Positions 26,506-56,100 of a stretch of 64,000 nt of DNA are shown one piece after another. The notes under the pieces are model-generated. The model was not told where the DNA came from. It did no database searches and worked only from the letters and a program-made list of their open reading frames with translations. The position numbers and the translations under genes were made by a program. Position 1 is the stretch's first letter. Each line of letters begins with the position of its first letter. Location of the stretch: positions 672,001 to 736,000 of the forward strand of contig CM000433.1 in NCBI GenBank assembly GCA_000165345.1. The letters run 5' to 3'.

Positions 26506-35163
<8,658 letters not shown>

Positions 35164-35508: not shown

Positions 35509-35571
35509 TATAACCATCATTAAGACGTGTTAATAAATTATTATTATTTTTTTAATTCAGGCCAAAATTAC

Positions 35572-35690
35572 ACCGTACTGATGTGATATCTCGTACCAAT
35601 CTTTCGCCTTTTACTAAAGATTGCCGTGTCACATCAGCTTGGTAGTTATTACCAGGTCATAATATTTGGGGAGTTTCTACACTCCGACAA
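35572..35690 (+). ncRNA. U5: U5 spliceosomal snRNA. The ends are approximate.
   Basis: 35596..35625 reads AATCTTTCGCCTTTTACTAAAGATTGCCGTG, matching the invariant U5 loop-1 region (human AUCUUUCGCCUUUUACUAAAGAUUUCCGUG). The closing stem CAATCTTT/AAAGATTG leaves the 11-nt loop CGCCUUUUACU. An outer stem pairs CTGATGTGA (35578..35586) with TCACATCAG (35629..35637). A Sm-like AUAAUAUUUGG follows at 35659..35669, then a 3' hairpin GGAGU-UUCUAC-ACUCC (35670..35685). The local segment is GC-rich against an AT-rich background. Confidence 0.7.
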
Positions 35691-36005: not shown

Positions 36006-36153
36006 TTATTGTAGCCCTAGAGGGCCCCAGAAATTGCCATTAATCTATTAGAGAATAGAATAATAGAAGTTTAAATTGGTGTAGTTTTCAACTAGCAGAA
36101 ATCGCACATCCGCTGAGCGTCATTTGTAACGATATCTCCCCTTGCGTAAGGCT
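36006..36153 (-). ncRNA. U4: U4 spliceosomal snRNA. The ends are approximate.
   Basis: The minus strand reads AGCCUUACGCAAGGGGAGAUAUCGUUACAAAUGACGCUCAGCGGAUGUGCGAUUUCUGCUAGUUGAAAACUACACCAAUU...UAAUGGCAAUUUCUGGGGCCCUCUAGGGCUACAAU. Human U4 is AGCUUUGCGCAGUGGCAGUAUCGUAGCCAAUGAGG...CGCGAUUAUUGCUAAUUGAAAACUUUUCCCAAU...GGCAAUUUUUGACAGUCUCUACGGAGACUGG. The shared parts are the 5' AGC..UGCGCA, a k-turn-like AAUGA 5' stem-loop, the U6-pairing UGCUAnUUGAAAAC, a Sm site AAUUUCUGG and a terminal hairpin. The length of about 148 nt is close to human U4 at 145 nt. Confidence 0.65.
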
Positions 36154-36336: not shown

Positions 36337-37521
36337 ATGTACAAAGATGAAGAAAAAGAAAGTAAAAATAGTTATCATGGAAATGGTGAAAGCTTGAATT
36401 CTGATTCCTATATTTTAAAAAGTGACGAAATTGAAACAATAAGATCTTTAATAAAAGGAAAAAGAAAAGAATTAATTTTAGAAGAAAATGATAAAAACAA
36501 TAATCAAATAAGACCTTCAAAGATGAAAAGAAAGGAAACTCATAAAAATGATCTTAAAAATGGTTCTATTGAGGAAATAACAAAACCAAAAATACGAGAT
36601 TACTTTACATGTATGTTATTTATTACATTGAAATTTCAAGATATCTTTACAAAGAAAAATTCGGAAATTATAATTGGAGAGTTAAATTTTAATGAACTAT
36701 TTATCAAATTTTCATTAAATATCTTAACTGAGGTATATAAAAAATACTATTACAAAGCAGAAATTTCTTCTGAAAAACCTAAAATATATCCAACTTTTGA
36801 TTTTCAAGAAATTAAAAAAAATCCAAATGGACAAAAGATATATAACAATATTTGCTCTAATTCTAACTTTGATCTTATTGTTAATGATACAAATTATCAA
36901 GTAAATCAAAGAGTTGGATTACATTTAAGCTTAACAAGAAATCATCATATTAGTAAGAAATTATCAATCAAATTTTTGGAAAATATTATCAAAAAATTCA
37001 ATAATTGCCTGGATATTAATAATGAAATTCCAGAAAAAGCCTTTATATCACAAAGAATTGAAATTCAAACTAAATTAAAATCCTTTTGTATTCTTTTAGA
37101 CTATGATTCTGTTATTATTTTGAAAAATACATACCTATATTCCAAAAATACTAATATTAATGGTGGTATCTTTGTAGCAATTCAAATTCATCATTCAAGC
37201 AAAATTAATTACTTGAATCCTATTATTGAAATTATTGATCAAGCTTGTATTGATTTAGGTATACAACCACTTTATTCTGAAAGAGTTTTCCATATTTCAT
37301 TATTTTATATTAAAAAGTCTGATCTATATTTGGGAAATGCTGGCCATAATTCCAAAAGTGTAATTGAAACTTACAACTTTAAAGAATATCTTTCATCTAA
37401 ACTCATTTCTTCTTCTATTAATGATTTCTCAACCCTAACCACAAAAAATAATATCGTTTGGATTAATAAACTTGTATTCAGAGTTGGAATATATGAGTAC
37501 TATTTACTTCTTGATTCTTGA
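36337..37521 (+). CDS. USB1: Usb1/Mpn1-like U6 snRNA phosphodiesterase (2H phosphoesterase, LigT-like), 394 aa.
   Basis: Two H-x-S-x motifs sit at the spacing expected for a 2H fold: GLHLSLTRNHHISK and RVFHISLFYIKK (family motifs HLSL and HVSL). The N-terminus is K/E-rich. Identification is by motif only. Confidence 0.5.
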   Translation: MYKDEEKESKNSYHGNGESLNSDSYILKSDEIETIRSLIKGKRKELILEENDKNNNQIRPSKMKRKETHKNDLKNGSIEEITKPKIRDYFTCMLFITLKFQDIFTKKNSEIIIGELNFNELFIKFSLNILTEVYKKYYYKAEISSEKPKIYPTFDFQEIKKNPNGQKIYNNICSNSNFDLIVNDTNYQVNQRVGLHLSLTRNHHISKKLSIKFLENIIKKFNNCLDINNEIPEKAFISQRIEIQTKLKSFCILLDYDSVIILKNTYLYSKNTNINGGIFVAIQIHHSSKINYLNPIIEIIDQACIDLGIQPLYSERVFHISLFYIKKSDLYLGNAGHNSKSVIETYNFKEYLSSKLISSSINDFSTLTTKNNIVWINKLVFRVGIYEYYLLLDS

Positions 37522-37548: not shown

Positions 37549-40500
37549 CTAACTCTTTTGAGTTCTTGTTCTTGGAACAATTTGGAAAGTTACTCTAGTC
37601 TTGAAAACGACTTTCTCATCCAATTCACTTATTATACAATAAATTGTGAAAGTCTTTCTGTTCATCTGAACTAACTGTCCTCCATATGGCATCACCAAAT
37701 CTTCCCTATTATTATTATTCTTTAATAACTCCTTTGCAATCATATCTATTTCAATTCCAGTTCCACCTCCAGCTTTTCCTAAACTTCCCAAGTTATTATC
37801 AGATTCATTTGATAAATTTTTAATATTATTCAATAATTTTTTTTGAGACTTATTCATTCCCGTATTAATATCACTGCTATTACTATTATTCATCGTTTGG
37901 TTTGCTCCTTCATTCATATTAATTATAGAATTCCTAATTAAAGAAGAATGCCTCTCATCATTTTCCAAAGTACTTGAGACTCTCCTAATATATCCAATTT
38001 TGTTCTGAGTATGAGCTGGAATTGTTCCAGAAATTATACCAGTTTCTGTTGAAAATGTTAATCCAGTATATTTTGGTAATGCTGGTTTAATACACCATCT
38101 TTTGCTTACATCATCTTCAATGAATATATTATGTTGCTGATTAATTATTCCTTTAGAGCAATAGAATATTGGCTCTAAATTTACTTGATCTTGACTATAA
38201 AATGTTATACAAGGTCTTGGATCGTTAACATCTGATCTAAATTTACTTGGAAGAGAATATCCAATCTTTAATATTGGACCCTTTTCTGTAATTATTATCA
38301 GTCCATTCGGAGTACCTCCTGTTCCTCCTCCCTTGTTATAATTCTTATTCTTACTAATTATTCTTGAGCTTGATTTCTTCTCCCTTAAAACCAATATATT
38401 CTCAGAATTTGAAGAATATTGAGAATCTTCGCCTAATTCAATCTGTGACATTGATGTTTCAATATCTCCTCCCATAATATCTTCAATCCTTTCTTTCATT
38501 CTTTCTTCAATCTCTTTACTATCCTGTGAAGCTCCTGTTTGTAATCCAACAGCACCAACAATTGCTAATACTGATTGTACTGCAGTACTTAATTCATTTC
38601 TCATACCTTCAAAAGTCTTTATTGCTATACCTACAAAAATACAAAATAATAATAATGAAGCTGATGTTGCCATTATTATTAATCCTTGTCTCTCATAACT
38701 TAGTCCTACATGATCATGAACTAATTGTGGTAAGAATAATCCAAAAAGTACTTCAAATCCATCCAATAATTCCTGTAAATCTAGTGATTTATCTTGATTT
38801 AAATCCATTAAATCAAACATTCTTTTTACTTCTCTTACTGGAAGCTGAATCCTCATATTATTTAATAATTCACAAAGTAAATCAAATGATAATCCTTCTT
38901 TACTTAAAGCTGCTAATATTGAAACCATATCTCCTGGACGTATTAAACCATATCTATTACTATATTCCAAACATTTTGATGTTGCTTCAATTATTGATGA
39001 TTCTGGCTTTTCTAGATGTAAACCAATATTTAATACTACTTTAATTGCTTCTGGCCATAATCCTGTCATTAATTTTTTTGGAAGTAATCTTCTAACTGAA
39101 TCAATGTTTATTACTACTCCTTCCATTGGATCCATTCCTGTTGGATCCATTAATATTCTTAAGTGAACTGATTCTTTTAGATTATTTCTAATCTTACTCT
39201 TTCTAATATAGGATTCCATATTTTCCATGGAGTCTTCAAATTGATTCATTAAATTATTACCAATCTTTTTATCTCTCCTAAATCTTCCTCCTATAGACAT
39301 TCTTTTTGAGAATTTCTTTTTAGATGAAGAACCTAATTCACCTTCTATTTGATATCCTGGTTTAAGCTTATATTTGCTTTCACCTCCTATTTTATCTTTT
39401 TCAGCTATTCCTTCACCAAAAGCCTCATAGTGTTCAAATCCTTTATTATGAATACCAATCAATCCACCTCCTCTATTCATGAGCTGTTGTTCACTATTAT
39501 ATTCATCTCGTTCATAATCCTCATCTTCATACATATAATGTTCCTCACCTTTCCTATTTCCTCTAGCTCTTAAATACTTATTCATTCCATCTTCCAATAC
39601 ACCTCTTGAATTCATCTGTTCATCTTCTTCTGCTTCTCTTTCCATATTTTTCCCATAATCCCTATATGGTACTATAAAAGAAGTAATATTTAAAGGATCT
39701 TTTGGTAAACTTTTCCAAATTGATTCCACTCCAGAATTTGGAATTGTTATCTTAGCCAAAGCTAAAAACCTTCTTAGCATTTCATGAGTAAAATATCCTC
39801 TATAAGAATGAACATCTTGAGCATCAAAATGTTGCTTGTTTTGGTTAGTTACCTCATATAAAGACGATTTGAATGTACCACTAATCAAATTACTTCCAGA
39901 AATTGTCATTCCTACTCCTCTAAATAACCCTGTACCTCCATAAGTTGTATTATTCACACTATTTTCATTACTATTACTACCCTTATTGACATTATTATTA
40001 GTGCTATTATTAGGATTATTACAACCAACATTACTCATTCTTCTTCCACTCAAGTATTCTTCTTCTCCATTATTCTTATAAATTGGTTGAAGATAAACCA
40101 TAATAATGAAATCTCTTGCTAAAGAAGCATTAACAAATGGTCTTACAGTTCCCATATTCAAATTCAAACATAATAACAACCATAATATATAACTTTGGAG
40201 TTTATGACTTGAGAATCCCAAAGTAGTTAAAGTTGTATCAAATATATCAAATGATATGTTAAAATCTACCATCTTGTTACTACTACCTGTCATCTTCTCA
40301 AAGTAGTCATCCTGATTCTTGTTGATCATTTTCTTATTGTTACTCGTTACTCCTTCATCTTCATTTGTATCCTGTATATTATTGTTATTGAGTTGATTAA
40401 AGTTATTACTTTGTGATCTACTAAATAGCAAAAGTTTACCTTGCTCAATTTCACCCTTGTTAGATCCTTTTTGACCACCAGAACTCTTATTTACACTTTC

Positions 40501-43500
40501 TAAATATGACAGATCAGTCGTCTTATGAATATATAATCTCTTGTGATCTTTAATATACTCATGCAATTGAGATCTTCCAATAAATCCACACCTCAAAACT
40601 GCAATTTTATGGAAATCTTTAACTACATCCTCTGGTATACCTTTAACATTACTTAATAAAGTCCAGTCCAATAGCTCACCATAATTTGAAGATCTCTCTG
40701 GAATCATTTTATTCAAAAATCCATCTTCTAAAATTGTCACACCTCCTCCTAAAGTTGTTCCTGAAAATGGCAAATCACCCCTTTCTCCTCCTCCAGCTAA
40801 ACCTTGTAGGCTAAATCCTATATCGTCTAAGTTACCAATTCCAAGATCACCACCTCTACCATGTACCTTATCATTCATTGCTGTACCAAATATATTACTT
40901 TGATTACTCAAAAGAGAACCTTGTCCTCCAATAATTCCTCCATTAATTGAATTTGAAATAATATTATCAAAGTTAGTACTTTTATGTATATGAAAAACAT
41001 TAATATTTGGACCCAATCCAAGCTCACTAAGTCTTTCCAAAGGATTTCCTGATCCCATCAATAACATATTATTACTAATTAAACCCAAGAAATGCATTGA
41101 TACAAGTAAACCCGAAAAATTCAAACATCTTTCTGTCAAAGTTTGTAATGCCAAATCTGATAATTCTACAGGTAAAAATCCACTTCCATTACTCAATTTA
41201 GTGAATACACTCTTTACATGTTGAAGATTCCTTTCCTCTATATAGTTAAGATTAGTTAAACTGACAGAATTATCATAAGTTACACTTGGAAGACGATCAG
41301 TTGATAAATTGATTCCACAGAGTCGAATTAAGAATATAAAAGCGTCCATCCAAAGGTATTTGGAAACAATTACTTGAATTACTTGCTCCAAAGTTGTTTC
41401 AGAAAACTCAATAGTATTATTACTCGATGATGAATTTGTAACTCCACCTGCTCCTCCATCACCTTCTCCATTCCCTGTAGCTCCTCCACCAATCAAAATA
41501 CCATTAATTTCACTCATTTTTGAATCAACTAATGCTGAATGAAATACTTCAACACTAGTTTTTACCTCTCTTTGATGAATTATATTTGCATTATTCTTCT
41601 GGTTCTTACCTACTGAAGATATATTCTGATTACTATTAGAAAAATCTGATACTAAAACTCCTCCAGATCTAGAACTTGTAATAGAATTAGCTCTCCTCAA
41701 GACTGTTTGGATTGCTCCTAAAATAACTTTCATTCCTTGATGATTTCTTGGTAAAATAAGTACTTCTTCAGTAATTAAACTATGAGATCTTTTCCAAGGT
41801 ATATCTACAGTAAGCATATCAACATCGGTATCTTTTAATACACTTAAAGCATACAATGCTTTAGTTATCAAAGATACTTGAAATTGTAATGATGCATTTC
41901 CTTGAGATAATGATATAATTTCAAGTGTATCCTTAACATTACGTTGATTTTCGACTCTATACTCTTTTAAAGCATCAACAACTTGAGCTGCAGTTTTAGG
42001 AGGAGCTGATACAAAGTATTCATGTATAGAAAGTGAAAGCTCATTTAAAGATGGTCCATAGAAGATATTTACAATTCTTGCAGCTTTTCTTCTGATTAAT
42101 TTTGGATAAACAATATCCAAAAAGTGATCAGCTCCTTTTTTAACTCTGCTTTTATCAAATAATCTTCCAATTATATGGTTAAATAAGATCCAGATATCTT
42201 GTCTAATCTCATTGTGAAGAATTCTCATAAGCTGTAAGAACTTGGTTGTATCATTGTCAGAGTTTTTGTTTTGAGATGTCATACTCTTAATGCATGCACT
42301 ATCTCCTCCAATTCCATTATCTTTTAACCCATTTCCATTAATATTAGTTGTTGTACCTCCAATTCCTCCTCCTCCTCCTCCTGCAGGATTAGCTATCATA
42401 CTACTACTGCTTGCAGCATTTATAAAACTTGAACTTGATCCATTATTCAAGTTTGAGTTAGATTGATTTAATAACCAGGTTGAAGATGAAGTTTTGAAGT
42501 TTCTATTTGATGATCCTGTTCTTCCAATAATATTCAAATTATTTCCCTGTTTCTCAAACATACTTAAGCTTCCAGAGAATGAATATTCATCATGAAAAGT
42601 ACTATTTGAAATGATATTTCCATCATTAATAATATCTAAATCATCGTTACTTAAAGAATGAGAATTACCAAAAGTTAATACATTTCTTCTTCCAAATATA
42701 GGAATCAATAAAGCAACCTGAGCATCAAATACCTTATAAGCCAAAGAATGAATATCTCTCAAAGCTGTATCAATATCTGGAGTCCTTAAATTTCTGGTAG
42801 CAAATGTAAATATATATTTTAGCTTTTGTACATTCATCTCACGTAATAATTGAAACTTTGTATGCTTACTAGAGTTACCAACTCCTCCTCTAATATTATT
42901 ACTAATATTATTAGAACTCTTTCCTCTAATTGAAAAACCTCCAAAAGAATCCCCAACTCCTTCAAAAGTACTAGAAGATGATCTTCCATAATGATTTAAT
43001 GAACATAGCTTTAAATTATTTAAATCCCCAGTAATTACACCAATATCTGAATCATTCACAACTTTTCCAAAATGGAAATGATTACCTGTATTCTTTTTAC
43101 TATTTTCAAAACTTGAAGAAAGTAAATCTATCCATAAATAGCCTTTCTGATCTATCATAGGCTTAAATCCTGTTTTTATTGTATGGCAAGAACTAGCATT
43201 GAAAATATCCTCACTAAACTCATCATCATACTCTTCCTCATCTATTCCACCATTTTCTTGTGCTCCTTTATCATCAATAACTCCTCTATCTATTATAAAT
43301 TGATCATGAGCTTGGCTCATAATCATCTCACCTTCATTCTCACTTGTACCTCCTCTAATTGGAATAACCTTCTCATAATCAGAATCCAAATTCCCAGGAT
43401 ACAATGAATACAATATTATAATATCTTCCACAGAAAATCCTTGTTGATCATCTACATTTGTATTACAAATAGAATTAAAATAATCAATAATATCTTGGTA

Positions 43501-46500
43501 TTTGGTATTTAATCCATTAAATAAAAATCTATCATAGTGTAAGTTAATTACCCAGTATAGAAACTCTTCCCTATTCAAAAATCCATCCTCATCCATATCA
43601 AAGAAGTCAAATATGAGCTTTACTTTAGCTTCATCTGATAAAGATTCACTTGGAGGAAAGATTGGAACTTTGACTATAGCACATTTGTACCAAGTTTCAA
43701 GCTGCAAAAAATCTTCAACTTTATATCCAAACCTTGGACCATACTTAACACCATCTTGTAAAAGAGCTACATCAAATCCTTCCAATAAGCCATCAACCTT
43801 ATCATTTTCAGAAATAACATCCTTAACTGTAGCTAATTTCATTCCATAATACATTCTTAAAGTCTCTTGAACTCCAATAATCTCTCCTTTTGAATTAATC
43901 CCAAATAAGCTTTTAGGTGCAACTGGCAATATCTTCAAATATTCCCATTTGGAACAATATAATGAACAATAATCAGATATTGGAAGCTTTGACCCATAAG
44001 ATTTAATTCTTGTACTATGCTTTAACTCCATTGAACCATCCAAAAAGTCTTTGAGAGCTTGTTTATTATTAGAATTCACACCTAATGATCCCTCTATTCC
44101 ACTTTTATCCCTTGAGATTTGTTGTTTTCCTACATTATTTAATATTGCTTTTGCCCATAAGTATTTGTGATTACTAATCTCACAATGTAATTGTTCAGAA
44201 ACTGCAGCTCTAAGATCATTTGGATCAGCAGAATTTGAATTACTAGTAAATGTTTGATTTGTTGCCTCAAACCAATGTCCTAATGCAATTGAAATCAAAG
44301 ACTGGAGATTTTCAGCAATAAATCTATCAACAATTCCTCTTGAAGAACTAAAGTTATTCCATAAGCTTACTATAACAAATCCCAAAGCCAAAAGCATTAC
44401 CACATAAGGAAGTATATTGTCTGAATTAATTAAAGAACCCAATAAGAACCATAAAAGGAACATTGAAATTGCTAATAATGTTAGAAACATTGAAAATAAT
44501 GTTACAAACATTCCAATTTCTTCAAAAAGTACCAACAATTTTATCCAGTAATACCTCAAATTCCTCCTCCATCTCCAAATTAAACCTTTACCTGTTATTT
44601 CTGAATCTTCATTATTCTCCTCTTGTCTTTTATTATAAGATGAAGGTGATGAACTGGAAGCAATGAATGTAGTATGAATAATTATAAGATGTAAAACTGA
44701 TAATATCAATAAGTATGGAATAGGAAATGGTAAAGACATAAAAAAGTCCCAAGTTGGATTATATACAATATCTGAAAAATAATTTGAACTGATATGAGAA
44801 TGTGGATTTGAAATGGAAAGAGTTGATAAGTAATTATAAACCAGAGTTAGTATGATACAAGTTACTGGGAATATTGAAAGTATTGAAATTTGAAAACCAT
44901 AAATCATTATATTTAGTATTACTGGTAAAATTGAAAATTGAAAAGAATACCAAATTTCATGTATTAATTCTTGTCTTTGTTTTATTTTTGCTATATATAT
45001 TGGAACTAATATTCCTCCATAACCAATATTATATCCTGAAATCCTATCAAGTTTTTCATTATTTACCCCATTAATAATATCTGAATCAATTATTTCAGTT
45101 CCTGATTTCTGTCTTAAATTTCCTTCATCATCTAATTGAGTACTACCAAGGTGTTCAGTTTCCCCTACTTTATTCCAATTTGATATTGTTGTTAATTCAG
45201 TATACTCACAATTACTATTTCTCATAGAATGGATTGATCCATCAATAACTTGGTTATTTGAAACACTATTCTTCAAATTTCGAATTAAATTAGTAGATGA
45301 ACGTTTTAATTGAGCAATTTTTAAAGACATTAAAGCTTTAGACCATCGTTGTTTTGATTTGGATATACTTTTTCTCTCTCTATCCTTGAGTTTTTGTTGT
45401 TTGCTGCTTTCTTTTGTTGTATATATTAGACTTAAAATAGCTTTCCAACTTCTGAACTTGCTTGATCTCCAAGTAGATTTTCTTCTGAAAACTGTTGAAT
45501 AATTTGAATGAACTAATAAACCCGAAGAAATATTAATAGTTTTCGCATCTTCATTTTTTTGGATTGAATTATAATCTTCTTTATTAAAGCAAAATAAGCA
45601 TTTCAAATTTGAGGAAAAGCTACATATTGAATTAACCATTTTTGAAATGGATATACTTCTTAAAAATAGCATTATAGAATCAATTTTGAAGTAACTGACA
45701 ACCTTAATTGTTAAAGGTAAGAATATACTAGTATCCAATATAATTCCATTCTTGAGCAAAAATCTATCAGGAGAAGACGACCACCAATAAGTTGAGTAAT
45801 TTAAAGTACAATTTTCAATAATGTCGATTGATTTTCTTTGAGATTTTAAAAATATACAATTATCCAATTCTTTATCTTCACCTCTTAATATATATCTACT
45901 TCCTGTAGTTATAGCCAATGCTTTAGCACTAATCATAAACTGGCCAGGACAGTAAGTTCCTCTTTGATGAGTTTCTGTAGGAATTGGTTTTCTTATATTT
46001 TCACAAACTCTTAAACTGCTAGGTGAAACCAGGAATCCATACTTATTTAAATCATTATAAGTAACAACTTCCATTTCAAGTCCAAATGTTCTGCAAAATG
46101 TTGCGTACAATAACTCAAATTCACTCAAAGTTGTTAATCTTATGACTTTGAATGAATTAGAAACTGCTACTATTATTTGTTTATTGCCTAATGAAGATCT
46201 TCTTCCTGCTCCTGTACCTGTACCTGTTCCTGACCCTGCAAGGAAATATCCAGAATTATCATGAGTAACTGATCCCTTTGGAACAAAGATTTTTCCTTGA
46301 ATAGTTACATTGGATGGAATATCATCTTTACTTACTGCCATAACTAAATAAACATCCCTTGAAGATGATCTTTGTGAAATAAATGGTACATCGACTGACC
46401 ATGCAAAAGTACCTGTATTTGGAATTGATTTGTCTCCATGCAAAGAAGTTAAATGTGTATCTGTATAATGATCAAAAATATGTAAATGCAACTTTTTAGG

Positions 46501-49500
46501 AATGTAGCTTGAACTATCCTTCTTTAACTCCCTCCAAATCCATGTTAATTGAGTATCACTGCCATTAATAATAATCTTACCAGGGATATCATTAGTGAAT
46601 CTTGGTTTGTTTGAGTTCAAGGCTGAGTTTGAAGAATTTGGAGTCTCTTTGTTCTTTTCCAAGTTGACAGGATCATTGTTTAACGCAGCTCCTCCTGTCT
46701 TTTGTCTATTAATGATTGAATTAGCTGAATGATTATATATCAAACGACCACTATTTTCATCACTTTTTTTTTTCACCATTTCAATATCAATACTTTCTAT
46801 ATTATTTAAAGGATTTGAGTCAATAATAATTTCCTCAGAAAGGTCATGCCTTAAATATTGAACCCAAAATGATCTATCTAAAAGCATTGAAAGCTCTCCC
46901 CATTGTCCTCCCTCTACATAATATAGTTTTACTGAAATATCCACAAACTTGTTAATAGAGACAGTATCGTTTGAAATTGTATCATGAACTTGAATGATAT
47001 CATTTTCTTGAAGTTCTGAATGATAACCCATTTTTGAATGAATTCTTCTGCCATGTACAACATCATCACTATCATCGTGCATGGCTACCAAATCCCCCTC
47101 AAAACTATCCTCATTATTGCTGTCATTAACTAACGATTTCCAAGCTATTTCTATCAATTTGGAGCATTTCACATCTCCATTTGCCACGACTTGGCCACTA
47201 TCTGCCTCTTGTAACTCAAACAATATTCGCTTTTGAGATATTAAACTTTGCTCCAAATATAAGCTGCTTGTTACTGCACATGAATTATTAACTTTCTCAT
47301 CCCTTCCAAATCCCCCAATACTCAATCTACGGCTTTCCCCCTTAGAATTGTGATTTATCTTATTACGAAGAATATAAACATTATTTCCTCCTCCTAATTC
47401 TCTCCCATTCACTGTATTCACATTTTCATTATAGTTACCAAATAAGTTAATATTTTCCAAACAGCCCTCAATTCGAACCTTATCTGTATCGAATGACTTA
47501 TTCTTAAATGTATAACTCTTAAGTGAGGAAAAATCATCCTCTTCTTCTGTAATGCTGGATGCATGCAAACTGCCAAACCTTGCCGCCGAACGTCCCTCCC
47601 CAGCTCCACCTTTACTTGTATAATTCTCAGAAATCTTCCCTGCTCCTCCGCTCACTCCACTTGAAATCTCGCTTGTGACAAACTCATCCGGAAAATCTCT
47701 CACTAATCTTGCTATCAACACATACTTTTTATTCCCTCTCACCTCTGAATACCCACATTCAATACCGGAACTATAGTTTGGCGCGCGCGCCTCTCTGTTA
47801 ATGCTTTGGTTAGAGAAGGACCTTTCGAATCTTTGTTCACCATTTATGTCAGTGACTATTCCATCCATTTTGTGAGCTGAGTTGGTCATTTCTTCCCTTC
47901 CAAATACTCCCATATTGTTGCTTTCGTCATTTATTAAATTATTTTTATCGTCATCATCATTATCCTCGAACCCATAATCAAAAATGTTTTCTTGAGAAAT
48001 GCTATTACGTTTCTTCCTCTTCCCACCAAGAACATCAAAAATTATTATCTCAATATCTCTAAAATAGAACGGAATTCCGAAAGGAGAGTAGTGATCTGTG
48101 TTTTTGTTTATGAATAAATTAAGTGAGGATCTTTTCTTAGGCAAAAACCTCCTTAAGAAAAGTAGTGGGAAATCTACAAACTTCATCTTGTTTCCTGGAA
48201 TAATCTCATTACTCCAATTGCTCTGCTCAATAATATGGCCAGAAGATGATATTCTTAGAATTCTTAATCTATACTTTTGATCAGAAATTAGTTCATATGG
48301 CATTGTCACCTCAAAGATGCATTTATCATTATATTTCATTGGAACAAACAACTCTTGTTGATTTCTTCCCAAATGTGTAGTTAATGACGCCTCGTTTGCT
48401 GGAATATAAAGGAAGAATTCAGAAAGCCCTGACTCATTTGTTACTTTCTCTTCATAACTATTGCTATTATTCCCACTATATTGAGATAAGTTCTCTACCT
48501 GTTTAATATATATACAAAGCTTCTCATTATCACGCCTTTTTTGTCTCTGATTCCATCTCAATAATAATCCAAAGCTTGGCCATTGAATTGTAGAAACCAT
48601 TACAATCCATTCTGCAGCCTCTGATGTCCTAAAATCATGATTTAGACGGTGTGAAGCCGTACTTACTAGTTGCATTTCTCTAATACCTGTTAAAAACCAT
48701 GGGAAAACATAGTAATATAGTACCCACATTGCTGCTGCTGCTACCAAAATACCACATAATATATTCAAAGATAGAGAAACTATGTAACCTTGTAAGTCAT
48801 TTGCTGTTACAAGGTCTTTTAATATTGCATCATTTTCAGCTGTAAATATGTATTGTTCGATTGTCTGATATGGATTATCGGATAAGACTTGTGGATTAGA
48901 TTCAAAATCATCATCTGCTAACATAGAACTTTTTAGAATCTTCTTGGATAGTTTGCTCCAGCCTGGAATTAACCATCCTGGGAATATTATACCCTCTAAA
49001 AATGATATCATTGAGGAAAACAATTTAAATACTTTCTTTAGTTGACTTTTTAATTTCTTCATTACCCATTTTGTCGTTAAAAACAAGTTATCAAATATGC
49101 CAACCTTATTTCTTTCTCCTAATCCCAACCCTGAATTATAAGCCTTAATTTCTTCACCATCATTCTGAGTCCATACAATTACGCTTGGTTGTTGAGCTAT
49201 GCCTACGATTGCTGTATTTATTACACTAAAGATGTTTTCAGTTATTGAAGATTCACAAGCTTTAATTCTACTTGATTTCCCCATATAATTGCCTACATCA
49301 CTTATACTTTTGATATTTGCAATATCTTCATGAATATTTGAGTCCTGGTTAATGTAATAATCTTCACTTATATTTTCATCAATGTAAATTGACTCATGTA
49401 AGTTATTTGAAAGTAATCTTGGTCCATTCTTAATTCCAAATATCTTCTTCAAATCGCTTAATTTACTTTCTTGCTTATTTTTCTCACCATTAGAGGATTT

Positions 49501-51891
49501 TGAATCATCTGGACCAATCATCTTTGATATTCTGCTTGTCATATTTGCCAGTATTCCTCCTTTCCCTTGACCTTCTACTTTATCATCAGAATTTTTATGA
49601 ATTATATTATCAGCTATTCCAATATCCTTACTGATACTTTGATTAGTTATATTTGCATAAATTCCACTAATTCCTCCATTAATATTACCTGTATTAGAAG
49701 GATTATCATCAACATTGATTACATCTAGATCTTCCAAATCTGAATGACTCACTGGAACCATACACCTTAATCCAAGAATATGAATAAATAGAGTGTATAT
49801 CCTTGGCATTAAAAGTCCTCCTGATAATAAAACCAAAGCATATGGATCTCGAATAAAAGCTCTTGAAGATACTGCCTTCCAAGTTCCCCTAGGATATTCT
49901 CTATTTCCTAAAACATTAATATAAAGTACCCATGGACTTGCAAGATCCTCTTGAAGCCATTTTGAAAACCCATTAAATCTTGATTTTGAAAACGCAAGTA
50001 AATGTGGATCTTTCCATTGGTGTCTTCCTGCCCAAGTAATAAGTTCATCCGATATGTTATTAAAATCTGAACTTGATTCAAAGTTTGAATAAGCATTTAT
50101 ATATACTGGTGGAATACTTCCTTGAATGTTAATTCTTGTATTAATTGAAGAACCTGAAAGTTTATTATCCAAGAATGATGAATCTGGATTCAGAGTTGCA
50201 ACAACTGATGCAGTTTTATAATACCCATGACCATCTAAATCATTTGATTTGCTTTCAAGCTTGACTTTAACATGCTCAGCTCTAAAAACTGCTAATTCTG
50301 CAATTCTGACTGGCATAGTAACAACAATTGGTGTTCTACTATTAATATATATTGGAGCTCCTCTACTTTCTATAAACACATTCCTACGACCTGAATCTTG
50401 GAGATTTGGGAGATCTATAGAAGCCCAACCATCTGAAATTGTGAGTGAAATATTTGGTGAATATACATCTTTTAAATCAAAAGTCCCATGTAATGCTTCC
50501 AAGTGAAATAGTGATTTAGCCTTGATCGGAATCGATGACGAAACTCTCATATATGTTGAAGATGGCACAAACTTGACAGAAAGTTCGTCAAACTGGAAGT
50601 TATTTGCCAAGAAAAAGTTTATTGAACATTGAAAATAATCACCAGTATTAGTTTGGTGTAATTTTATTGATAAATTTGAATCATTATTAAAATTCCAAGG
50701 TCTAGGACTTGAATCACAGTATTCTTTATAATCCTTCCAAGAAATATTCTTTATATTATAATCACTATAAGTATCCCATGGAAGAATATATCTTTTCAAT
50801 ATCCAGAAGAAAGTTCCGTGAGAGCATATATATTCGAACTTATCTTTCTTCCTAGATGGTATACTGTACCTTCCAGAACTACCATAGTACATATGTGATT
50901 TGGAAAATAATCTCCAAGATCTAACTTTAATATAGCTCAGATCACTAGTTGAATTAAGGAATTGAATATGGCAATGTTTAACATCCAAAGTTACATTTAG
51001 TGGTCTATTTATTGAATTTTCAAAAATATCAGAGTCTTGTTTAATATTGAATAAAGGAAAAAGCTTCTTTAATAAGTTACTTTTACCTATTAATCCCATA
51101 TCATTGTTACCAGTTCTTGATACCACTGTTGGATTCTTTGATCTCAGTAATGAAGGAACTAATCCTTCAGTTTGTTCATTCTTTGACTCAAAAATACTTC
51201 CCAAAGGGTATAATGGAATAATATCATTAACAATATACTCATCTAGAAATATTGAAAAAGTATAAACCATTGAAATTAAAAAGAATATCCAAAGAAATAA
51301 AATTGGACGTACATTCAATTTTTGTAATGTGATTACTGGAATTCCAAAAGATACCGGAAATTCCCTTATTACTAAAAATTCGGAGCTTGGTAAACTTAGT
51401 ATTTCTCTCTTTTGAATACGTCTCGATTTTCCTCTGCTCTTTAATAACATCAATAATTCACGACTATTATCTTCATATATTTCGTCTTCAGAATCCAATT
51501 CTTCAGATTCTGTTTCGTCCTCACATTCTTCAAGGCCATCATCTAACTCATCATCAGAATTCTCTTCTGCTTCATTATAATCTCTTTCTTTCAGATCCCC
51601 TCCTTTTTGGTCAGCAGATAATCCATATTTATTAAATACCCTGCTTTCATAATTCTCACTATTCATTAACTTTCCATTTATCAGCTCCCTTTCCACATCT
51701 AAATAGTCACTATTAATAATTTGGTGAAATTTTGTGATAATACAATCATCATATTCTTCTTGCTCTAGAACATGATACTTTTCTGGTCTTACTGTTGCAC
51801 TTTCTATATATTCATCTGGGTACTTTTCATATTGTTCTAAAGCTCTTTCAGAATGAGGTCTTTGACAAATTCTAGAATCATAATCCACCAT
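37549..51891 (-). CDS. Giant multi-pass membrane protein of 4780 aa with EF-hand-like calcium-binding motifs. It is otherwise hypothetical.
   Basis: This is a single 14.3-kb ORF. Several hydrophobic segments are predicted: PILFLWIFFLISMVYTFSIFL, LNILCGILVAAAAMWVLYYYVFPWFL, FQFSILPVILNIMIYGFQISILSIFPVTCIILTLVY, LLVLFEEIGMFVTLFSMFLTLLAISMFLLWFLLGSLI, ILPYVVMLLALGFVIVSLW and, near the C-terminus, LIIMATSASLLLFCIFVGIAIKTF. EF-hand-like loops are FDMDEDGFLNREEF and DLMDLNQDKSLDLQELLDGF. There are Gly-rich and N/S-rich low-complexity tracts. Confidence 0.7.
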   Translation of the reverse strand: MVDYDSRICQRPHSERALEQYEKYPDEYIESATVRPEKYHVLEQEEYDDCIITKFHQIINSDYLDVERELINGKLMNSENYESRVFNKYGLSADQKGGDLKERDYNEAEENSDDELDDGLEECEDETESEELDSEDEIYEDNSRELLMLLKSRGKSRRIQKREILSLPSSEFLVIREFPVSFGIPVITLQKLNVRPILFLWIFFLISMVYTFSIFLDEYIVNDIIPLYPLGSIFESKNEQTEGLVPSLLRSKNPTVVSRTGNNDMGLIGKSNLLKKLFPLFNIKQDSDIFENSINRPLNVTLDVKHCHIQFLNSTSDLSYIKVRSWRLFSKSHMYYGSSGRYSIPSRKKDKFEYICSHGTFFWILKRYILPWDTYSDYNIKNISWKDYKEYCDSSPRPWNFNNDSNLSIKLHQTNTGDYFQCSINFFLANNFQFDELSVKFVPSSTYMRVSSSIPIKAKSLFHLEALHGTFDLKDVYSPNISLTISDGWASIDLPNLQDSGRRNVFIESRGAPIYINSRTPIVVTMPVRIAELAVFRAEHVKVKLESKSNDLDGHGYYKTASVVATLNPDSSFLDNKLSGSSINTRINIQGSIPPVYINAYSNFESSSDFNNISDELITWAGRHQWKDPHLLAFSKSRFNGFSKWLQEDLASPWVLYINVLGNREYPRGTWKAVSSRAFIRDPYALVLLSGGLLMPRIYTLFIHILGLRCMVPVSHSDLEDLDVINVDDNPSNTGNINGGISGIYANITNQSISKDIGIADNIIHKNSDDKVEGQGKGGILANMTSRISKMIGPDDSKSSNGEKNKQESKLSDLKKIFGIKNGPRLLSNNLHESIYIDENISEDYYINQDSNIHEDIANIKSISDVGNYMGKSSRIKACESSITENIFSVINTAIVGIAQQPSVIVWTQNDGEEIKAYNSGLGLGERNKVGIFDNLFLTTKWVMKKLKSQLKKVFKLFSSMISFLEGIIFPGWLIPGWSKLSKKILKSSMLADDDFESNPQVLSDNPYQTIEQYIFTAENDAILKDLVTANDLQGYIVSLSLNILCGILVAAAAMWVLYYYVFPWFLTGIREMQLVSTASHRLNHDFRTSEAAEWIVMVSTIQWPSFGLLLRWNQRQKRRDNEKLCIYIKQVENLSQYSGNNSNSYEEKVTNESGLSEFFLYIPANEASLTTHLGRNQQELFVPMKYNDKCIFEVTMPYELISDQKYRLRILRISSSGHIIEQSNWSNEIIPGNKMKFVDFPLLFLRRFLPKKRSSLNLFINKNTDHYSPFGIPFYFRDIEIIIFDVLGGKRKKRNSISQENIFDYGFEDNDDDDKNNLINDESNNMGVFGREEMTNSAHKMDGIVTDINGEQRFERSFSNQSINREARAPNYSSGIECGYSEVRGNKKYVLIARLVRDFPDEFVTSEISSGVSGGAGKISENYTSKGGAGEGRSAARFGSLHASSITEEEDDFSSLKSYTFKNKSFDTDKVRIEGCLENINLFGNYNENVNTVNGRELGGGNNVYILRNKINHNSKGESRRLSIGGFGRDEKVNNSCAVTSSLYLEQSLISQKRILFELQEADSGQVVANGDVKCSKLIEIAWKSLVNDSNNEDSFEGDLVAMHDDSDDVVHGRRIHSKMGYHSELQENDIIQVHDTISNDTVSINKFVDISVKLYYVEGGQWGELSMLLDRSFWVQYLRHDLSEEIIIDSNPLNNIESIDIEMVKKKSDENSGRLIYNHSANSIINRQKTGGAALNNDPVNLEKNKETPNSSNSALNSNKPRFTNDIPGKIIINGSDTQLTWIWRELKKDSSSYIPKKLHLHIFDHYTDTHLTSLHGDKSIPNTGTFAWSVDVPFISQRSSSRDVYLVMAVSKDDIPSNVTIQGKIFVPKGSVTHDNSGYFLAGSGTGTGTGAGRRSSLGNKQIIVAVSNSFKVIRLTTLSEFELLYATFCRTFGLEMEVVTYNDLNKYGFLVSPSSLRVCENIRKPIPTETHQRGTYCPGQFMISAKALAITTGSRYILRGEDKELDNCIFLKSQRKSIDIIENCTLNYSTYWWSSSPDRFLLKNGIILDTSIFLPLTIKVVSYFKIDSIMLFLRSISISKMVNSICSFSSNLKCLFCFNKEDYNSIQKNEDAKTINISSGLLVHSNYSTVFRRKSTWRSSKFRSWKAILSLIYTTKESSKQQKLKDRERKSISKSKQRWSKALMSLKIAQLKRSSTNLIRNLKNSVSNNQVIDGSIHSMRNSNCEYTELTTISNWNKVGETEHLGSTQLDDEGNLRQKSGTEIIDSDIINGVNNEKLDRISGYNIGYGGILVPIYIAKIKQRQELIHEIWYSFQFSILPVILNIMIYGFQISILSIFPVTCIILTLVYNYLSTLSISNPHSHISSNYFSDIVYNPTWDFFMSLPFPIPYLLILSVLHLIIIHTTFIASSSSPSSYNKRQEENNEDSEITGKGLIWRWRRNLRYYWIKLLVLFEEIGMFVTLFSMFLTLLAISMFLLWFLLGSLINSDNILPYVVMLLALGFVIVSLWNNFSSSRGIVDRFIAENLQSLISIALGHWFEATNQTFTSNSNSADPNDLRAAVSEQLHCEISNHKYLWAKAILNNVGKQQISRDKSGIEGSLGVNSNNKQALKDFLDGSMELKHSTRIKSYGSKLPISDYCSLYCSKWEYLKILPVAPKSLFGINSKGEIIGVQETLRMYYGMKLATVKDVISENDKVDGLLEGFDVALLQDGVKYGPRFGYKVEDFLQLETWYKCAIVKVPIFPPSESLSDEAKVKLIFDFFDMDEDGFLNREEFLYWVINLHYDRFLFNGLNTKYQDIIDYFNSICNTNVDDQQGFSVEDIIILYSLYPGNLDSDYEKVIPIRGGTSENEGEMIMSQAHDQFIIDRGVIDDKGAQENGGIDEEEYDDEFSEDIFNASSCHTIKTGFKPMIDQKGYLWIDLLSSSFENSKKNTGNHFHFGKVVNDSDIGVITGDLNNLKLCSLNHYGRSSSSTFEGVGDSFGGFSIRGKSSNNISNNIRGGVGNSSKHTKFQLLREMNVQKLKYIFTFATRNLRTPDIDTALRDIHSLAYKVFDAQVALLIPIFGRRNVLTFGNSHSLSNDDLDIINDGNIISNSTFHDEYSFSGSLSMFEKQGNNLNIIGRTGSSNRNFKTSSSTWLLNQSNSNLNNGSSSSFINAASSSSMIANPAGGGGGGIGGTTTNINGNGLKDNGIGGDSACIKSMTSQNKNSDNDTTKFLQLMRILHNEIRQDIWILFNHIIGRLFDKSRVKKGADHFLDIVYPKLIRRKAARIVNIFYGPSLNELSLSIHEYFVSAPPKTAAQVVDALKEYRVENQRNVKDTLEIISLSQGNASLQFQVSLITKALYALSVLKDTDVDMLTVDIPWKRSHSLITEEVLILPRNHQGMKVILGAIQTVLRRANSITSSRSGGVLVSDFSNSNQNISSVGKNQKNNANIIHQREVKTSVEVFHSALVDSKMSEINGILIGGGATGNGEGDGGAGGVTNSSSSNNTIEFSETTLEQVIQVIVSKYLWMDAFIFLIRLCGINLSTDRLPSVTYDNSVSLTNLNYIEERNLQHVKSVFTKLSNGSGFLPVELSDLALQTLTERCLNFSGLLVSMHFLGLISNNMLLMGSGNPLERLSELGLGPNINVFHIHKSTNFDNIISNSINGGIIGGQGSLLSNQSNIFGTAMNDKVHGRGGDLGIGNLDDIGFSLQGLAGGGERGDLPFSGTTLGGGVTILEDGFLNKMIPERSSNYGELLDWTLLSNVKGIPEDVVKDFHKIAVLRCGFIGRSQLHEYIKDHKRLYIHKTTDLSYLESVNKSSGGQKGSNKGEIEQGKLLLFSRSQSNNFNQLNNNNIQDTNEDEGVTSNNKKMINKNQDDYFEKMTGSSNKMVDFNISFDIFDTTLTTLGFSSHKLQSYILWLLLCLNLNMGTVRPFVNASLARDFIIMVYLQPIYKNNGEEEYLSGRRMSNVGCNNPNNSTNNNVNKGSNSNENSVNNTTYGGTGLFRGVGMTISGSNLISGTFKSSLYEVTNQNKQHFDAQDVHSYRGYFTHEMLRRFLALAKITIPNSGVESIWKSLPKDPLNITSFIVPYRDYGKNMEREAEEDEQMNSRGVLEDGMNKYLRARGNRKGEEHYMYEDEDYERDEYNSEQQLMNRGGGLIGIHNKGFEHYEAFGEGIAEKDKIGGESKYKLKPGYQIEGELGSSSKKKFSKRMSIGGRFRRDKKIGNNLMNQFEDSMENMESYIRKSKIRNNLKESVHLRILMDPTGMDPMEGVVINIDSVRRLLPKKLMTGLWPEAIKVVLNIGLHLEKPESSIIEATSKCLEYSNRYGLIRPGDMVSILAALSKEGLSFDLLCELLNNMRIQLPVREVKRMFDLMDLNQDKSLDLQELLDGFEVLFGLFLPQLVHDHVGLSYERQGLIIMATSASLLLFCIFVGIAIKTFEGMRNELSTAVQSVLAIVGAVGLQTGASQDSKEIEERMKERIEDIMGGDIETSMSQIELGEDSQYSSNSENILVLREKKSSSRIISKNKNYNKGGGTGGTPNGLIIITEKGPILKIGYSLPSKFRSDVNDPRPCITFYSQDQVNLEPIFYCSKGIINQQHNIFIEDDVSKRWCIKPALPKYTGLTFSTETGIISGTIPAHTQNKIGYIRRVSSTLENDERHSSLIRNSIINMNEGANQTMNNSNSSDINTGMNKSQKKLLNNIKNLSNESDNNLGSLGKAGGGTGIEIDMIAKELLKNNNNREDLVMPYGGQLVQMNRKTFTIYCIISELDEKVVFKTRVTFQIVPRTRTQKS

Positions 51892-53105: not shown

Positions 53106-56100
53106 TCAACAGAATAGACCAATTGAATCAACAAAACTGTCAATATTTTGGCTAAATAATTTATCTCCAACAGTCTCGCAAGGAAAATCTTGAACAAGAT
53201 TTGAAGGAGCTAGTATATAAGCTGAAAATGGAGACATATTGAGAAAAACTGTTTGCTTGAGAGATTTTGTATTGACAAATCTATATGGAGATTCGTGTTG
53301 GAAATTGTTTGGAAATTTATTATTAACAATAGAATTAATATTTGAAGGCTCTGAGTTAGGGCTAAAAATCTTGAATCCTTGCTCAGATTTGATAGAAGTG
53401 GAACAAAAGCTGCCCGTGATATGATATTTTTTGTCTCCTCCAAATCTCTCATCTTGTGTGTCAATTATTAGACTCTGGGGAAGTTCACTTGAAATCCCAA
53501 ATCCATAATCGTTGTAATACTTTTCGCTGAAATTGAAAACAAAAACACAATTATTTCTCTCAATTACCATAACTTTATCCAATTCGTGGCACAATACTAC
53601 ATTAATATTAGATGATGAATTATACAAACTATCAGTTGTTAAGATCTTTAATGAATCTTTTGAATGCTTACCAAGGCTTTTTGCTCTAGAATAGATGTTT
53701 TGAATAGACTTTGAGCCTTCTTTTCCATTGCTTTGGGGGGTTGAGTCCAAATAAATGACAGATTCATTATCTACTGGGCTTGTATTATCCCCTGAGCTCT
53801 CTTCCAATTTTTTAATAATTGCTTCTTTCTTCGCTAAAACCCTCTTAGAAAATGTTGAAGCTGGGGAAATCTCTGAAGGTATTAATGAAGTAGAGGTTCC
53901 TTTAGTTAAAGGTGAAATTGATTTGGAGTAACAAGCTGAAGTAAGCCCATTCTTACCTAACTCTCCCTCACTACCACATGTTAACGGTGAAAGATAATTA
54001 TAATTGACTCCATAATCCTGAATGTTATTCTTGGCTATCCAGCTTAAAAATTTCTCAAGACGAATCAATAGAGTATTAAAGAATTCTAAATGCTTGAATT
54101 TCAAGTTCTTGTTATCTGCCAAATCCCATTTACAACACATTTTGCTATTATCCATGTTATTATTTGGTCTAGGAAGATCAAAAGAATCAGGATTTCCAAA
54201 TTCGGAGCCCATACTTTGAAAGACACCATTTTTTGCGAAAGCCATGGTTGTTAATATAAGTAGCTTTAACTGTTTAAGAGCAAAAACCGACTTGTCAAAA
54301 CCGTCAAATACCATCATATGATGATGAAGAGCATTTTCTCCAAAGGCTTGAAGAATGATGGGTGAATTTGGCTTAAGTATTAAGCTTGGAGTAACATCCA
54401 AAACATTGCACTGTTCAAAATACAAGAAACTAGTTGCTCGTGCAATTGAGTCCCATGAAAATGAATAAGCTGCTTTTACTCTACCTCTGGACCCCATCCA
54501 TCTAGAATGATCAAAGTTTTTCAATATCTCACAGCAACCCCAAGCAATGCTATCCTTACATGGCTCAACCAAGTACCCATCTACGTTCGGAGTTAAGAAA
54601 TCCCTTGGGCCGCCACTAGTAGTAGCAACAACAGGCTTTCCAGCTGTCCATCCTTCCAATACAACAATTCCAAATGGTTCATTTCTTGATGGTACTACTA
54701 CTGCGTCACAAGCCTTGTAAAGTCTGATTACATCATCTCCTGATTTCTTTCCAACAAATCTGATGGAATTGTAAATACCTAACTGATGAGATCTACGCAC
54801 AATCTCATCTTTTTGGTGTCCATCTCCAACTATGATAAATTTCGTATCATTACGATATTTCAAAATGCCAGGTACTGCTTCAATAAGTAAGTCAACTCCT
54901 TTTTGGAGAGCCATTCTTGCAACGCAAAGAAATGTTGGTTCCAAAGGTCCTATGCCGTATTGCCTTTTAACTTCGCCAGCATCATCCATTGCTACACTAT
55001 CAAAGGTCTTGCAATTAATTCCATTAAAAATTACTTTAATTTTGTTTCTATTTATTCCAAATAGTCTACATACTTCCTCTGCAAACACTCCACTTACACA
55101 AATTAGTCGGTCTGCAGTATGGGAGCCTTCTCTCTCTATATCAGAAATTCTACCGCTCTGTCCTCCATATGACTGATTTCCACATCTGCCGTATTCAGTA
55201 GAATGCAATGTTAGGATAGTAGTCCTATTATTATTTCCAATTCTTCTTAAACTTGTTAATACAGGAGCAGCTAACCAATCATGGCAATGACAAATATTGA
55301 ATCGATACCCATTCTTTACATTATTAAGCATTGGATGATCAGGTACCTTTGTTAGCCCATCTTCCCATCTCTGCATATAATATACAAACGAATTACACAT
55401 ATTTATAATTTCAGTAACAAAATCAGAATTCAACTGGAAAGGGCATTCATGGTATAATACTCCATCGTGAACTTTGATTATATATGCTGATGTAGTTGCC
55501 CTTGTGAATAGATGAACCTCGTGGCCAAGTCTTACAAGGCTTGCAGACAACTGTGAAACATGAGGTGAAACCCCACCAACTGAGTGAGTATAAAGACTTT
55601 CCCAACTGAACATTGCAATTCTGAGAGGATTCTGTGTCACCGTCTTCATCTCCAGAGATTCTATCCCATATAAGTTTCTGGAAACAAACTCAACTGTATG
55701 CAAATCAGATTCTCCCATATCCGAGTAACTATTATTATTGCCATTATCATTATCTCCTCTACTGGATATGTTTTGCTTCTCTCTGTTTTTGTATAAAATC
55801 CGAATCTTCTTATTGGAATTCCTCATTTTATCCTCATGGGGAAGCAACTCGTCAATTATATCTTTTTTAATATTTAAACTGGATGGGCTTTTAAGGATGA
55901 TGTCTTGCAAGGAGCTACAAATTGAAGTATTCCAAATATAGTCAAAGCCCATACCTCCATATTCCAAAGGTACTGCAAGCTCTGAACAAGCCTTGTCTTT
56001 GTTTTCTCTTAAGAGAAGCTCATTTGCTATTGTAATAGCAAATGGCTTAATTGTGTGGATTGTATCATTAATCAAAGCCAACACTGAGGAGATATAGGAG

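Follow-up and report, generated by a model that had tools for sequence, protein, structure and literature searches.

A giant Cryptosporidium membrane protein with a conserved predicted calcium site belongs to a family shared with gregarines and Cardiosporidium

A 14.3-kb gene and its protein family

We analyzed a window of 64,000 nucleotides from Cryptosporidium parvum (GenBank assembly GCA_000165345.1, contig CM000433.1, forward-strand positions 672,001 to 736,000; coordinates below are positions in this window) and focused on a giant open reading frame (ORF) that encodes a protein of 4780 residues. The ORF runs on the minus strand from 51891 to 37549, begins with ATG and has 4780 uninterrupted codons. 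Five codons before the ATG there is an in-frame stop, and M1 and the first residues of the protein are kept in the distant orthologues of the C. muris clade. The translation agrees with the C. parvum Iowa II entry EAK88017.1 / XP_626243.1 / UniProt Q5CRE3 without a mismatch over 4780 residues, and chromosome 5 of two other C. parvum assemblies carries the same 4780-residue product at ~948–962 kb of 1086 kb. The 14.3-kb ORF is a real C. parvum chromosome 5 gene, already annotated and of uncharacterized function, whose product appears publicly as 'hypothetical protein', 'EF-hand domain containing protein', 'putative integral membrane protein' or 'transmembrane domain-containing protein'. From Atcc_002050 = cgd5_540 and the chromosomal position, its gene ID is expected near cgd5_41xx–44xx; numbering, position and product name make cgd5_4110 / CPATCC_002440 the likely identity, and a secretome/transcriptome study gives the sole hint on expression. 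In the literature searched, neither the accession numbers of the gene nor its neighbors are mentioned. The gene model was thus already public, and what is new here is the family to which the protein belongs and the architecture of that family, for which there is no Pfam model as a whole and no description in the literature searched.

An earlier note on this DNA, made by a model from the sequence alone, had called a single ORF of 4780 residues without giving its strand; the call holds at exactly 37549..51891, on the minus strand. The same note had named concatenation of separate genes as what would overturn it. An artefact of this kind, with neighboring genes fused by chance, assembly or annotation error, or a non-coding frame that happens to be open, has in our estimate a practically negligible probability. 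The low-complexity linkers that make up 22% of the protein might resemble gene boundaries, and no other support for such an origin was found. Against it, the window is AT-rich (28% G+C overall, 19–37% across 2-kb windows), and at 28% G+C the chance of 4780 stop-free codons is ~10^-179; independent C. parvum assemblies call the same 4780-residue product; and about 15 collinear blocks recur in identical order in 15 or more independent homologues that span several genera. These homologues include two ORFs from transcripts that their sources label 'ORF type:complete', one of 3134 residues that spans block A to the EF2 block and one of 2943 residues that spans block A to the C-terminal immunoglobulin (Ig)-like block (features listed below). 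The whole architecture therefore lies on one transcript in those organisms, and concatenation is refuted for practical purposes. We regard it as close to certain that the locus is a real single gene encoding a polytopic membrane protein of a new family.

The features of the gene and its product are the following, from the N-terminus to the C-terminus of the protein.

37549..51891, minus strand: whole ORF, 4780 residues plus stop, equal to C. parvum Iowa II XP_626243.1/Q5CRE3
51307..51891, minus strand: N-terminal acidic region, residues 1–195, with 50 D+E and 24 K+R in residues 1–194; probably cytosolic
51244..51306, minus strand: first transmembrane helix (TM1), residues 196–216, signal-anchor-like, Kyte–Doolittle (KD) hydropathy 2.37; an N-terminal helix before block A in most complete homologues
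49768..51009, minus strand: block A, residues 295–708, beta-rich, probably extracellular or lumenal; 45–64% identity to C. muris
48691..48783, minus strand: TM2, residues 1037–1067, a single long helix at the start of block B1, which in homologues also shows as one peak at the corresponding position
47992..48690, minus strand: block B1, residues 1068–1300; 67–77% identity to C. muris
45694..46584, minus strand: block B2, residues 1770–2066, family-wide; two cysteines kept in the non-Cryptosporidium alignment (FCR, VC..LR.PLP)
44359..44952, minus strand: four-helix cluster ('ab' residues 2314–2358, c 2381–2411, d 2459–2485, e 2493–2511), from hydropathy and conservation
43651..43977, minus strand: putative C-type-lectin-like / aerolysin-pertussis-toxin (APT)-like domain, residues 2639–2747, from an AlphaFold2 model and Foldseek
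43366..43635, minus strand: EF-hand pair domain 1, residues 2753–2842, with the canonical loop DMDEDGFLNREE (EF1) at residues 2765–2776 (nucleotides 43564–43599)
39667..42879, minus strand: six conserved helical blocks with N/S/G-rich linkers, residues 3005–4075; weak EF-hand-like internal similarity
38716..39165, minus strand: EF2 block, residues 4243–4392, with the loop DLNQDKSLDLQE (EF2) at residues 4363–4374 (nucleotides 38770–38805)
38620..38685, minus strand: last membrane helix, residues 4403–4424, KD 2.54, in nearly all homologues
38530..38586, minus strand: G/A-rich segment STAxQSxLAxxGAxGLQ, residues 4436–4454, conserved, mean KD ~1.35 (<1.6), followed by a charged helix
37570..38304, minus strand: C-terminal module, residues 4530–4774, with the He_PIG-type Ig-like motif ...PALPKYTGLTFSTETGIISGTIP... 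and closing strands ...FTIYCI...TRVTFQIVP

Homologues were collected with a hidden Markov model (HMM) of residues 2285–2860, a stretch that covers 12% of the protein, in an exhaustive search of 1.8 billion representative proteins. This search returned 43 proteins at E ≤ 1e-3, about half of them unnamed and mostly short fragments. Named matches came from C. ryanae, the nephromycid Cardiosporidium cionae and the gregarines Gregarina niphandrodes (two paralogues), Gregarina sp. Poly1, Blabericola migrator, Porospora cf. gigantea (two paralogues) and Selenidium pygospionis, in addition to transcriptome assemblies. The orthologue search across apicomplexans that the earlier note had proposed thus yields homologues in gregarines and Cardiosporidium. 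Among the named matches there was no protein of coccidians or haemosporidians (Toxoplasma, Plasmodium) in this search with residues 2285–2860, the single exhaustive search from which absence in other lineages is read. A word-indexed protein search with the EF2-block alignment gave no match among 8000 candidates, presumably swamped by EF-hand words, and after removal of the EF-hand part of the block it recovered one 179-residue fragment. The family is found here only in Cryptosporidium, gregarines and Cardiosporidium. Members thus occur in Conoidasida (Cryptosporidium, gregarines) as well as in Aconoidasida (Cardiosporidium), which suggests that the family arose in the ancestor of Apicomplexa and was lost, or diverged extremely, in coccidia, haemosporidians and piroplasms.

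Among Cryptosporidium species, conservation extends over the entire protein, with blocks of 60–90% identity alternating with variable linkers. BLASTP identity is 84% to the chipmunk genotype I protein and 45% over 64% of the query to C. muris, and in the full-length alignment C. muris, C. andersoni and C. serpentis each reach ~55%. When a profile built from the full-length Cryptosporidium alignment was compared locally with the homologues, ~15 blocks were matched in the same order in every homologue, at approximate profile coordinates 400–712, 1002–1290, 1770–1870, 1910–2066, 2320–2410, 2450–2580, 2660–2900, 3015–3080, 3215–3365, 3490–3625, 3728–3790, 3870–3930, 4018–4070, 4232–4480 and 4536–4620. 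The family signature joins these collinear blocks to the hairpin LWFxLGxLINSDxxLPYxVMxG and to a second module, MDxTGxDPTxG...TGLWPE...KRMFDLMDxNxDKSLDxxELLxGFExLF-TM-STAxQSxLAxxGAxGLQ, and all of these elements are present in the C. parvum protein. Collinear blocks, the same helix positions and the same EF2 site mark several annotated proteins as true homologues: those named 'EF hand family protein' in C. muris RN66 (XP_002142486.1), C. andersoni and C. serpentis, 'EF hand domain-containing protein' in Cardiosporidium cionae (KAF8822497.1) and 'putative transmembrane protein' in Gregarina niphandrodes (XP_011133030.1, XP_011130838.1). Orthologues outside Cryptosporidium, from gregarines and Cardiosporidium, measure 2600–3800 residues, with compact forms of 2930 residues in Cardiosporidium and 2600–2950 in gregarines, so that the Cryptosporidium protein is 1.5–1.8 times longer, probably at least in part because of its N/S/G-rich linkers. 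These non-Cryptosporidium members differ in having much shorter linkers and, in many cases, a degenerate EF1, and their source names carry no described function.

Three entries encountered during family assembly call for separate comment. The Porospora cf. gigantea A protein P0061 (3771 residues) has ~10 extra helices in residues 1–790, a region that probably accounts for the Choline_transpo match seen in this one member of the homologue set (E 8.6e-39); its N-terminus is likely a gene-model fusion with a neighboring CTL-type transporter gene, with a real fusion as the alternative. In a 16.3-kb environmental contig (L003, Logan SRR18067488), positions 1297–12447 hold the divergent member P0054 (2298 residues) together with ORFs of 396 and 1022 residues directly before it on the same strand, which are probably the N-terminal part of the P0054 gene split by the gene caller. 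The sturgeon 'contaminant' protein P0032 was rejected as a simple repeat.

Membrane helices, calcium sites and soluble domains

We called membrane helices from Kyte–Doolittle hydropathy (threshold 1.6), conservation and charge pattern, and read their conserved positions from the hydropathy of each homologue mapped onto the blocks, the glocal family alignment being too gappy. Helices at conserved places number 1 + 1 + 4 + 1 = seven, plus one doubtful, and weaker hydropathy peaks are not conserved. In most complete homologues, one helix precedes block A, another opens B1, about four lie around the 2320–2580 blocks and one is in the EF2 block. The multi-pass membrane protein of the earlier note thus stands, with 7–8 helices at family-conserved hydropathy peaks. 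Its picture of helix clusters separated by very long low-complexity regions is right about the helices and about the low complexity, since 1040 of the 4780 residues (22%, in 16 segments) are low-complexity or N/S/G-rich, but gives way on the separators, which are mainly conserved globular blocks with low-complexity linkers between them. The motif formed by helix d, the loop and helix e (LWFxLGxLINSDxxLPYxVMxG) is family-wide. The G/A-rich segment after the last helix has 13 hydrophobic residues between two glutamines, its Cardiosporidium equivalent reaches KD 1.74, and it may be an eighth, short or re-entrant helix.

Charge distribution points to a mostly cytosolic protein. The N-terminal region has no signal peptide and varies in length among homologues (TM1 at residues 22–400), and TM1 carries K/R on its N-terminal side and D/E on its C-terminal side; the flank charges and the lack of a signal peptide would place the N-terminus inside and block A outside. 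The basic flank after TM2 would in turn place residues 1068–2313 inside. Around the four-helix cluster, family-wide K+R counts for flanks and loops alternate 2.2 / 0.8 / 3.3 / 0.0 / 2.0, a pattern that fits four helices running in-out-in-out-in, so that residues 2512–4402 with both EF hands would be cytosolic. The last helix would then return the chain to the outer side, where the Ig-like C-terminus would lie if the G/A-rich segment does not cross the membrane as well. The topology that we infer thus has the N-terminus in, block A (~820 residues) out, residues 1068–2313 and 2512–4402 (~3100 residues, with both EF hands) in the cytosol and the Ig-like C-terminus out, and would leave ~3300 of 4780 residues, or ~70% of the mass, cytosolic.

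An EF-hand loop (PF00036, clan CL0220) has 12 residues with oxygen ligands at positions 1, 3, 5, 9 and 12 (D-x-[DN]-x-[DNS]-...-E) and a hydrophobic residue at position 8. The two EF-hand-like loops singled out in the earlier note, DMDEDGFLNREE at residues 2765–2776 and DLNQDKSLDLQE at residues 4363–4374, both fit this pattern and are canonical. EF1 scores 26.7 bits against the EF-hand_1 cut-off of 25.4 in Pfam, and is canonical in Cryptosporidium and some gregarines and degenerate in many other members. The EF2 block is the best conserved part of the family, with 78–266 bits in homologues, mostly 150–265. Its loop keeps positions 1 (D), 3 (N), 8 (L) and 12 (E) invariant in 17 of 17 members, with D at position 5 in 16 of 17 and D, S or E at position 9 in all 17, and a family profile of the block matched EF-hand proteins in the Protein Data Bank (PDB) at E 7e-5 to 1e-3. 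EF2 sits ~28 residues N-terminal of the last membrane helix, which makes it a predicted Ca2+ site next to that helix that is kept in all 17 members aligned.

EF-hand families are also the only Pfam matches of the protein, besides matches below cut-off or at noise level, and its place in the EF-hand superfamily is due solely to these two small motifs. A third EF-hand-like stretch was weak in the comparison of the full-length non-Cryptosporidium family profile with the PDB. With hhalign, several cytosolic blocks showed weak similarity to the EF2 block, the best being block 4015 at a probability of 62%, and self-BLAST found no internal repeats; an EF-hand array is not claimed on these two results.

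One 576-residue stretch (residues 2285–2860, 12% of the protein) was modeled. AlphaFold2 with six Cryptosporidium sequences gave an unusable predicted local distance difference test (pLDDT) score of 35, and with the 22-sequence family alignment a mean pLDDT of 73.8, with the helices at ~65–88 and the soluble domain at residues 2639–2847 mostly at 83–94. Foldseek of this model found nothing in the PDB at E ≤ 1e-3. Its top matches (E ~0.06, probability 0.9–1.0) were the N-terminal APT domain of proaerolysin, pertussis toxin S2/S3, and CIB1, calcineurin B and NCS-type EF-hand proteins; no membrane-protein fold was among the matches listed. In the model, residues 2639–2747 accordingly adopt a C-type-lectin/APT-like fold directly before the EF-hand pair, as a resemblance of fold and not as membership: a Pfam APT match occurred in 1 of 22 members at E 0.047, short of sequence-level membership (PF03440, PF00059 superfamily), and no Lectin_C or Xlink match occurred in the 22. 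Whereas the modeled fold is like that of the APT domain of aerolysin and pertussis toxin S2–S3 and of the C-type-lectin/Link module, the domain here has no family-conserved cysteine in the 22-sequence alignment and hence no conserved disulfide cysteines, is probably cytosolic and is fused directly to an EF-hand pair. We know of no description of such a fusion.

Two further conserved regions would face the opposite side of the membrane. Block A reaches 50–149 bits in homologues from gregarines and from environmental sequences. The C-terminus resembles a He_PIG Ig-like domain: the motif P.LP..TGL.F...TG.I.G.IP and the closing strands T[YF].[VI]...N..G...TR[IV]TF.I are a family-wide consensus, and He_PIG (PF05345) matches 4 of 7 Cryptosporidium members (best E 0.0026) and one non-Cryptosporidium member at E 4e-7. 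Motif and closing strands are alike in He_PIG and dystroglycan-type cadherin-like Ig domains, but the C. parvum protein scores below the Pfam gathering cut-off (13.6 bits, E 0.09, against 24 bits), and the Cryptosporidium domain is split by a long low-complexity insert at residues 4637–4728.

Candidate functions of the protein

No signature of a channel, transporter, Piezo, Patched, RyR/IP3R or polycystin protein was detected in the protein and its homologues by Pfam or by PDB profile search. The profile queries were the full-length genus alignment, the EF2 block, the block of residues 2285–2860 and the full-length non-Cryptosporidium alignment, and they returned EF-hand proteins only, except for a few marginal matches in the EF2-block list; the ion-transport, Piezo-like and patched-like folds that the earlier note had suggested looking for did not appear. 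Voltage-gated-like, TRP and polycystin channels share a six-helix unit with a pore loop between S5 and S6. Here the protein and 13–22 homologues gave no match to PF00520 or PF08016 at E up to 1–10, and the 1 + 1 + 4 + 1 helix layout has loops too short for a pore loop. RyR/IP3R proteins combine MIR, RIH and RYDR_ITPR domains with a C-terminal six-helix channel, and none of these domains has a Pfam match in the protein or its homologues. Piezo has 24–38 helices, Patched-NPC1 has 12 with a sterol-sensing domain and PKD1 has REJ, GPS and PLAT domains with 11 helices; Pfam gave no match to Piezo, Patched-NPC1 or polycystin-1, there are 7–8 helices only, and the fold comparison covered residues 2285–2860. 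A single weak Orai-1 match among the homologues and an RNA_pol_Rpa2_4 match (E 0.005) were rejected as noise. The protein is therefore like the giant Ca2+ channels and receptors (RyR/IP3R, polycystin-1/REJ, Piezo) in layout only, in its large size, its mostly non-membrane mass and its EF hands (as in RyR and PKD2) or lectin domain (as in PKD1), whereas their defining domains and helix numbers are not present. Its likeness to Miro, STIM and polycystin-2, in which an EF hand lies near a membrane helix, goes no further than the EF-hand fold and where it lies, and Pfam finds no GTPase, SAM or six-helix channel domain here. The functions that the earlier note had entertained, a calcium-gated channel or transporter-like protein or a structural membrane protein, are thus partly supported.

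We tentatively favor, at somewhat less than an even chance, a mostly cytosolic, calcium-sensing, receptor-like membrane scaffold. This proposal draws together the conserved polytopic protein, the Ca2+ site by the last helix, the lectin-like/EF-hand module, the two putative ectodomains and the lack of a channel or transporter signature. Cytosolic Ca2+ would bind the invariant EF2 site beside the last helix, and in Cryptosporidium also EF1; the large cytosolic platform would respond with a change in its conformation or in the partners that it binds and would thereby be coupled to the ectodomains (block A and the Ig-like C-terminus), and the protein would be neither a canonical pore nor a carrier. 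Several points weigh against such a scaffold. Its topology is derived from hydropathy and the positive-inside rule only. If the 45-residue 'ab' helix were a hairpin, as it could be, everything after it would be flipped, and the EF hands and the lectin-like domain would lie outside. C-type-lectin-like folds are normally extracellular, which argues against cytosolic placement of residues 2639–2747, yet the domain has no family-conserved cysteines. Finally, the conserved d–e hairpin, last helix and G/A-rich segment are what would be expected of a pore or an oligomerization interface.

This last point leads to the unlikely alternative that the protein forms the pore of a calcium-gated channel of a new type. 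In an assembly of several copies, the d–e hairpin (with its LINSD loop and PY motif), the last helix and STAxQSxLAxxGAxGLQ would line a pore gated by EF2 28 residues upstream. The membrane elements do rank with the best conserved parts of the family, EF2 lies right beside the last helix and its ligands are kept in every member aligned, and the conserved polar residues (N, S, D, Q) in or next to the helices are unusual for mere anchors; on the other side stand the short loops and the lack of any channel signature described above. A bolder version, which we consider distinctly improbable, is a new class of calcium-gated channel or Ca-controlled conduit at the host–parasite or pellicle interface, ancestral to Apicomplexa and kept only in Cryptosporidium, gregarines and nephromycids. 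Such a channel, if real, would be a candidate for the unidentified Ca2+ entry or release routes in these parasites. Slightly less unlikely than a pore-forming subunit is a structural tether or adhesion protein at the parasite surface or an internal membrane contact, such as the pellicle or the attachment and feeding apparatus of Cryptosporidium and gregarines, in which block A and the Ig-like C-terminus would serve to bind a partner, and the role of the EF hands would be to stabilize the protein and not to signal. The very large size, the modular blocks joined by flexible linkers, the Ig-like He_PIG module and lectin-like fold typical of adhesion proteins, and a distribution centered on Cryptosporidium and gregarines all speak for a tether. 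Yet ~70% of the mass would be cytosolic by the preferred topology, the fully conserved EF2 ligands suggest regulated Ca2+ binding, the gene also occurs in Cardiosporidium, which parasitizes the blood of ascidians, and the link to cgd5_4110 comes from numbering and product name only.

Cryptosporidium is a leading cause of childhood diarrhea with few validated targets. The protein is conserved throughout the genus, with ~55% identity to that of the distant gastric species along nearly its whole length, and beyond its generic EF hands it has no detectable family shared with anything else, human proteins included. It may mark biology kept by Cryptosporidium, gregarines and Cardiosporidium, namely Ca2+-controlled events at a membrane, perhaps in attachment, feeding or motility. 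The EF2–helix module (~250 residues) and the lectin-like/EF-hand module (~210 residues) are small enough for expression and testing.

Neighboring genes in the window

The immediate upstream neighbor of the giant gene, at 53106–59315 on the minus strand, encodes a 2069-residue protein with a starch-synthase-like GT5/GT4/GT1 region at residues 1232–1612 and a weak alpha-amylase match at residues 880–912. On the other side lies a small splicing-related cluster. Genes for the U5 small nuclear RNA (snRNA; 35570–35686, plus strand, 69.5 bits) and the U4 snRNA (36014–36153, minus strand, 95.9 bits) sit between a midasin-like ORF and an HVSL/USB1-like ORF at 36337–37521; USB1 is the U6 snRNA 3′ exonuclease family. 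The midasin-like ORF (26482–35163, minus strand, 2893 residues) has midasin-type AAA_5 modules in five matched stretches and midasin lid domains, and may be an incomplete or divergent Rea1/midasin because it is short for a midasin.

At the left end of the window, two plus-strand ORFs in the same frame (24–3086) carry a DEAD domain with an SNRNP200 winged helix-turn-helix (24–1298) and a Sec63 Brl domain (1734–3086). The stretch between them is AT-rich and stop-filled, starts with GT after ...RRISK and ends in ...TTTTTTTATAG before NPTYYGL, and it looks like a ~420-nucleotide intron of a Brr2/SNRNP200-like helicase gene, which continues beyond the left edge of the window. Ordinary neighbors are a ribosomal protein S7e gene (13126–13728, minus strand), a p25-alpha/TPPP-like gene (14723–15343, plus strand) and a carboxylesterase-family gene (17328–19094, plus strand), and a tRNA-Asp (GTC) gene lies at 63027–63099 on the plus strand.

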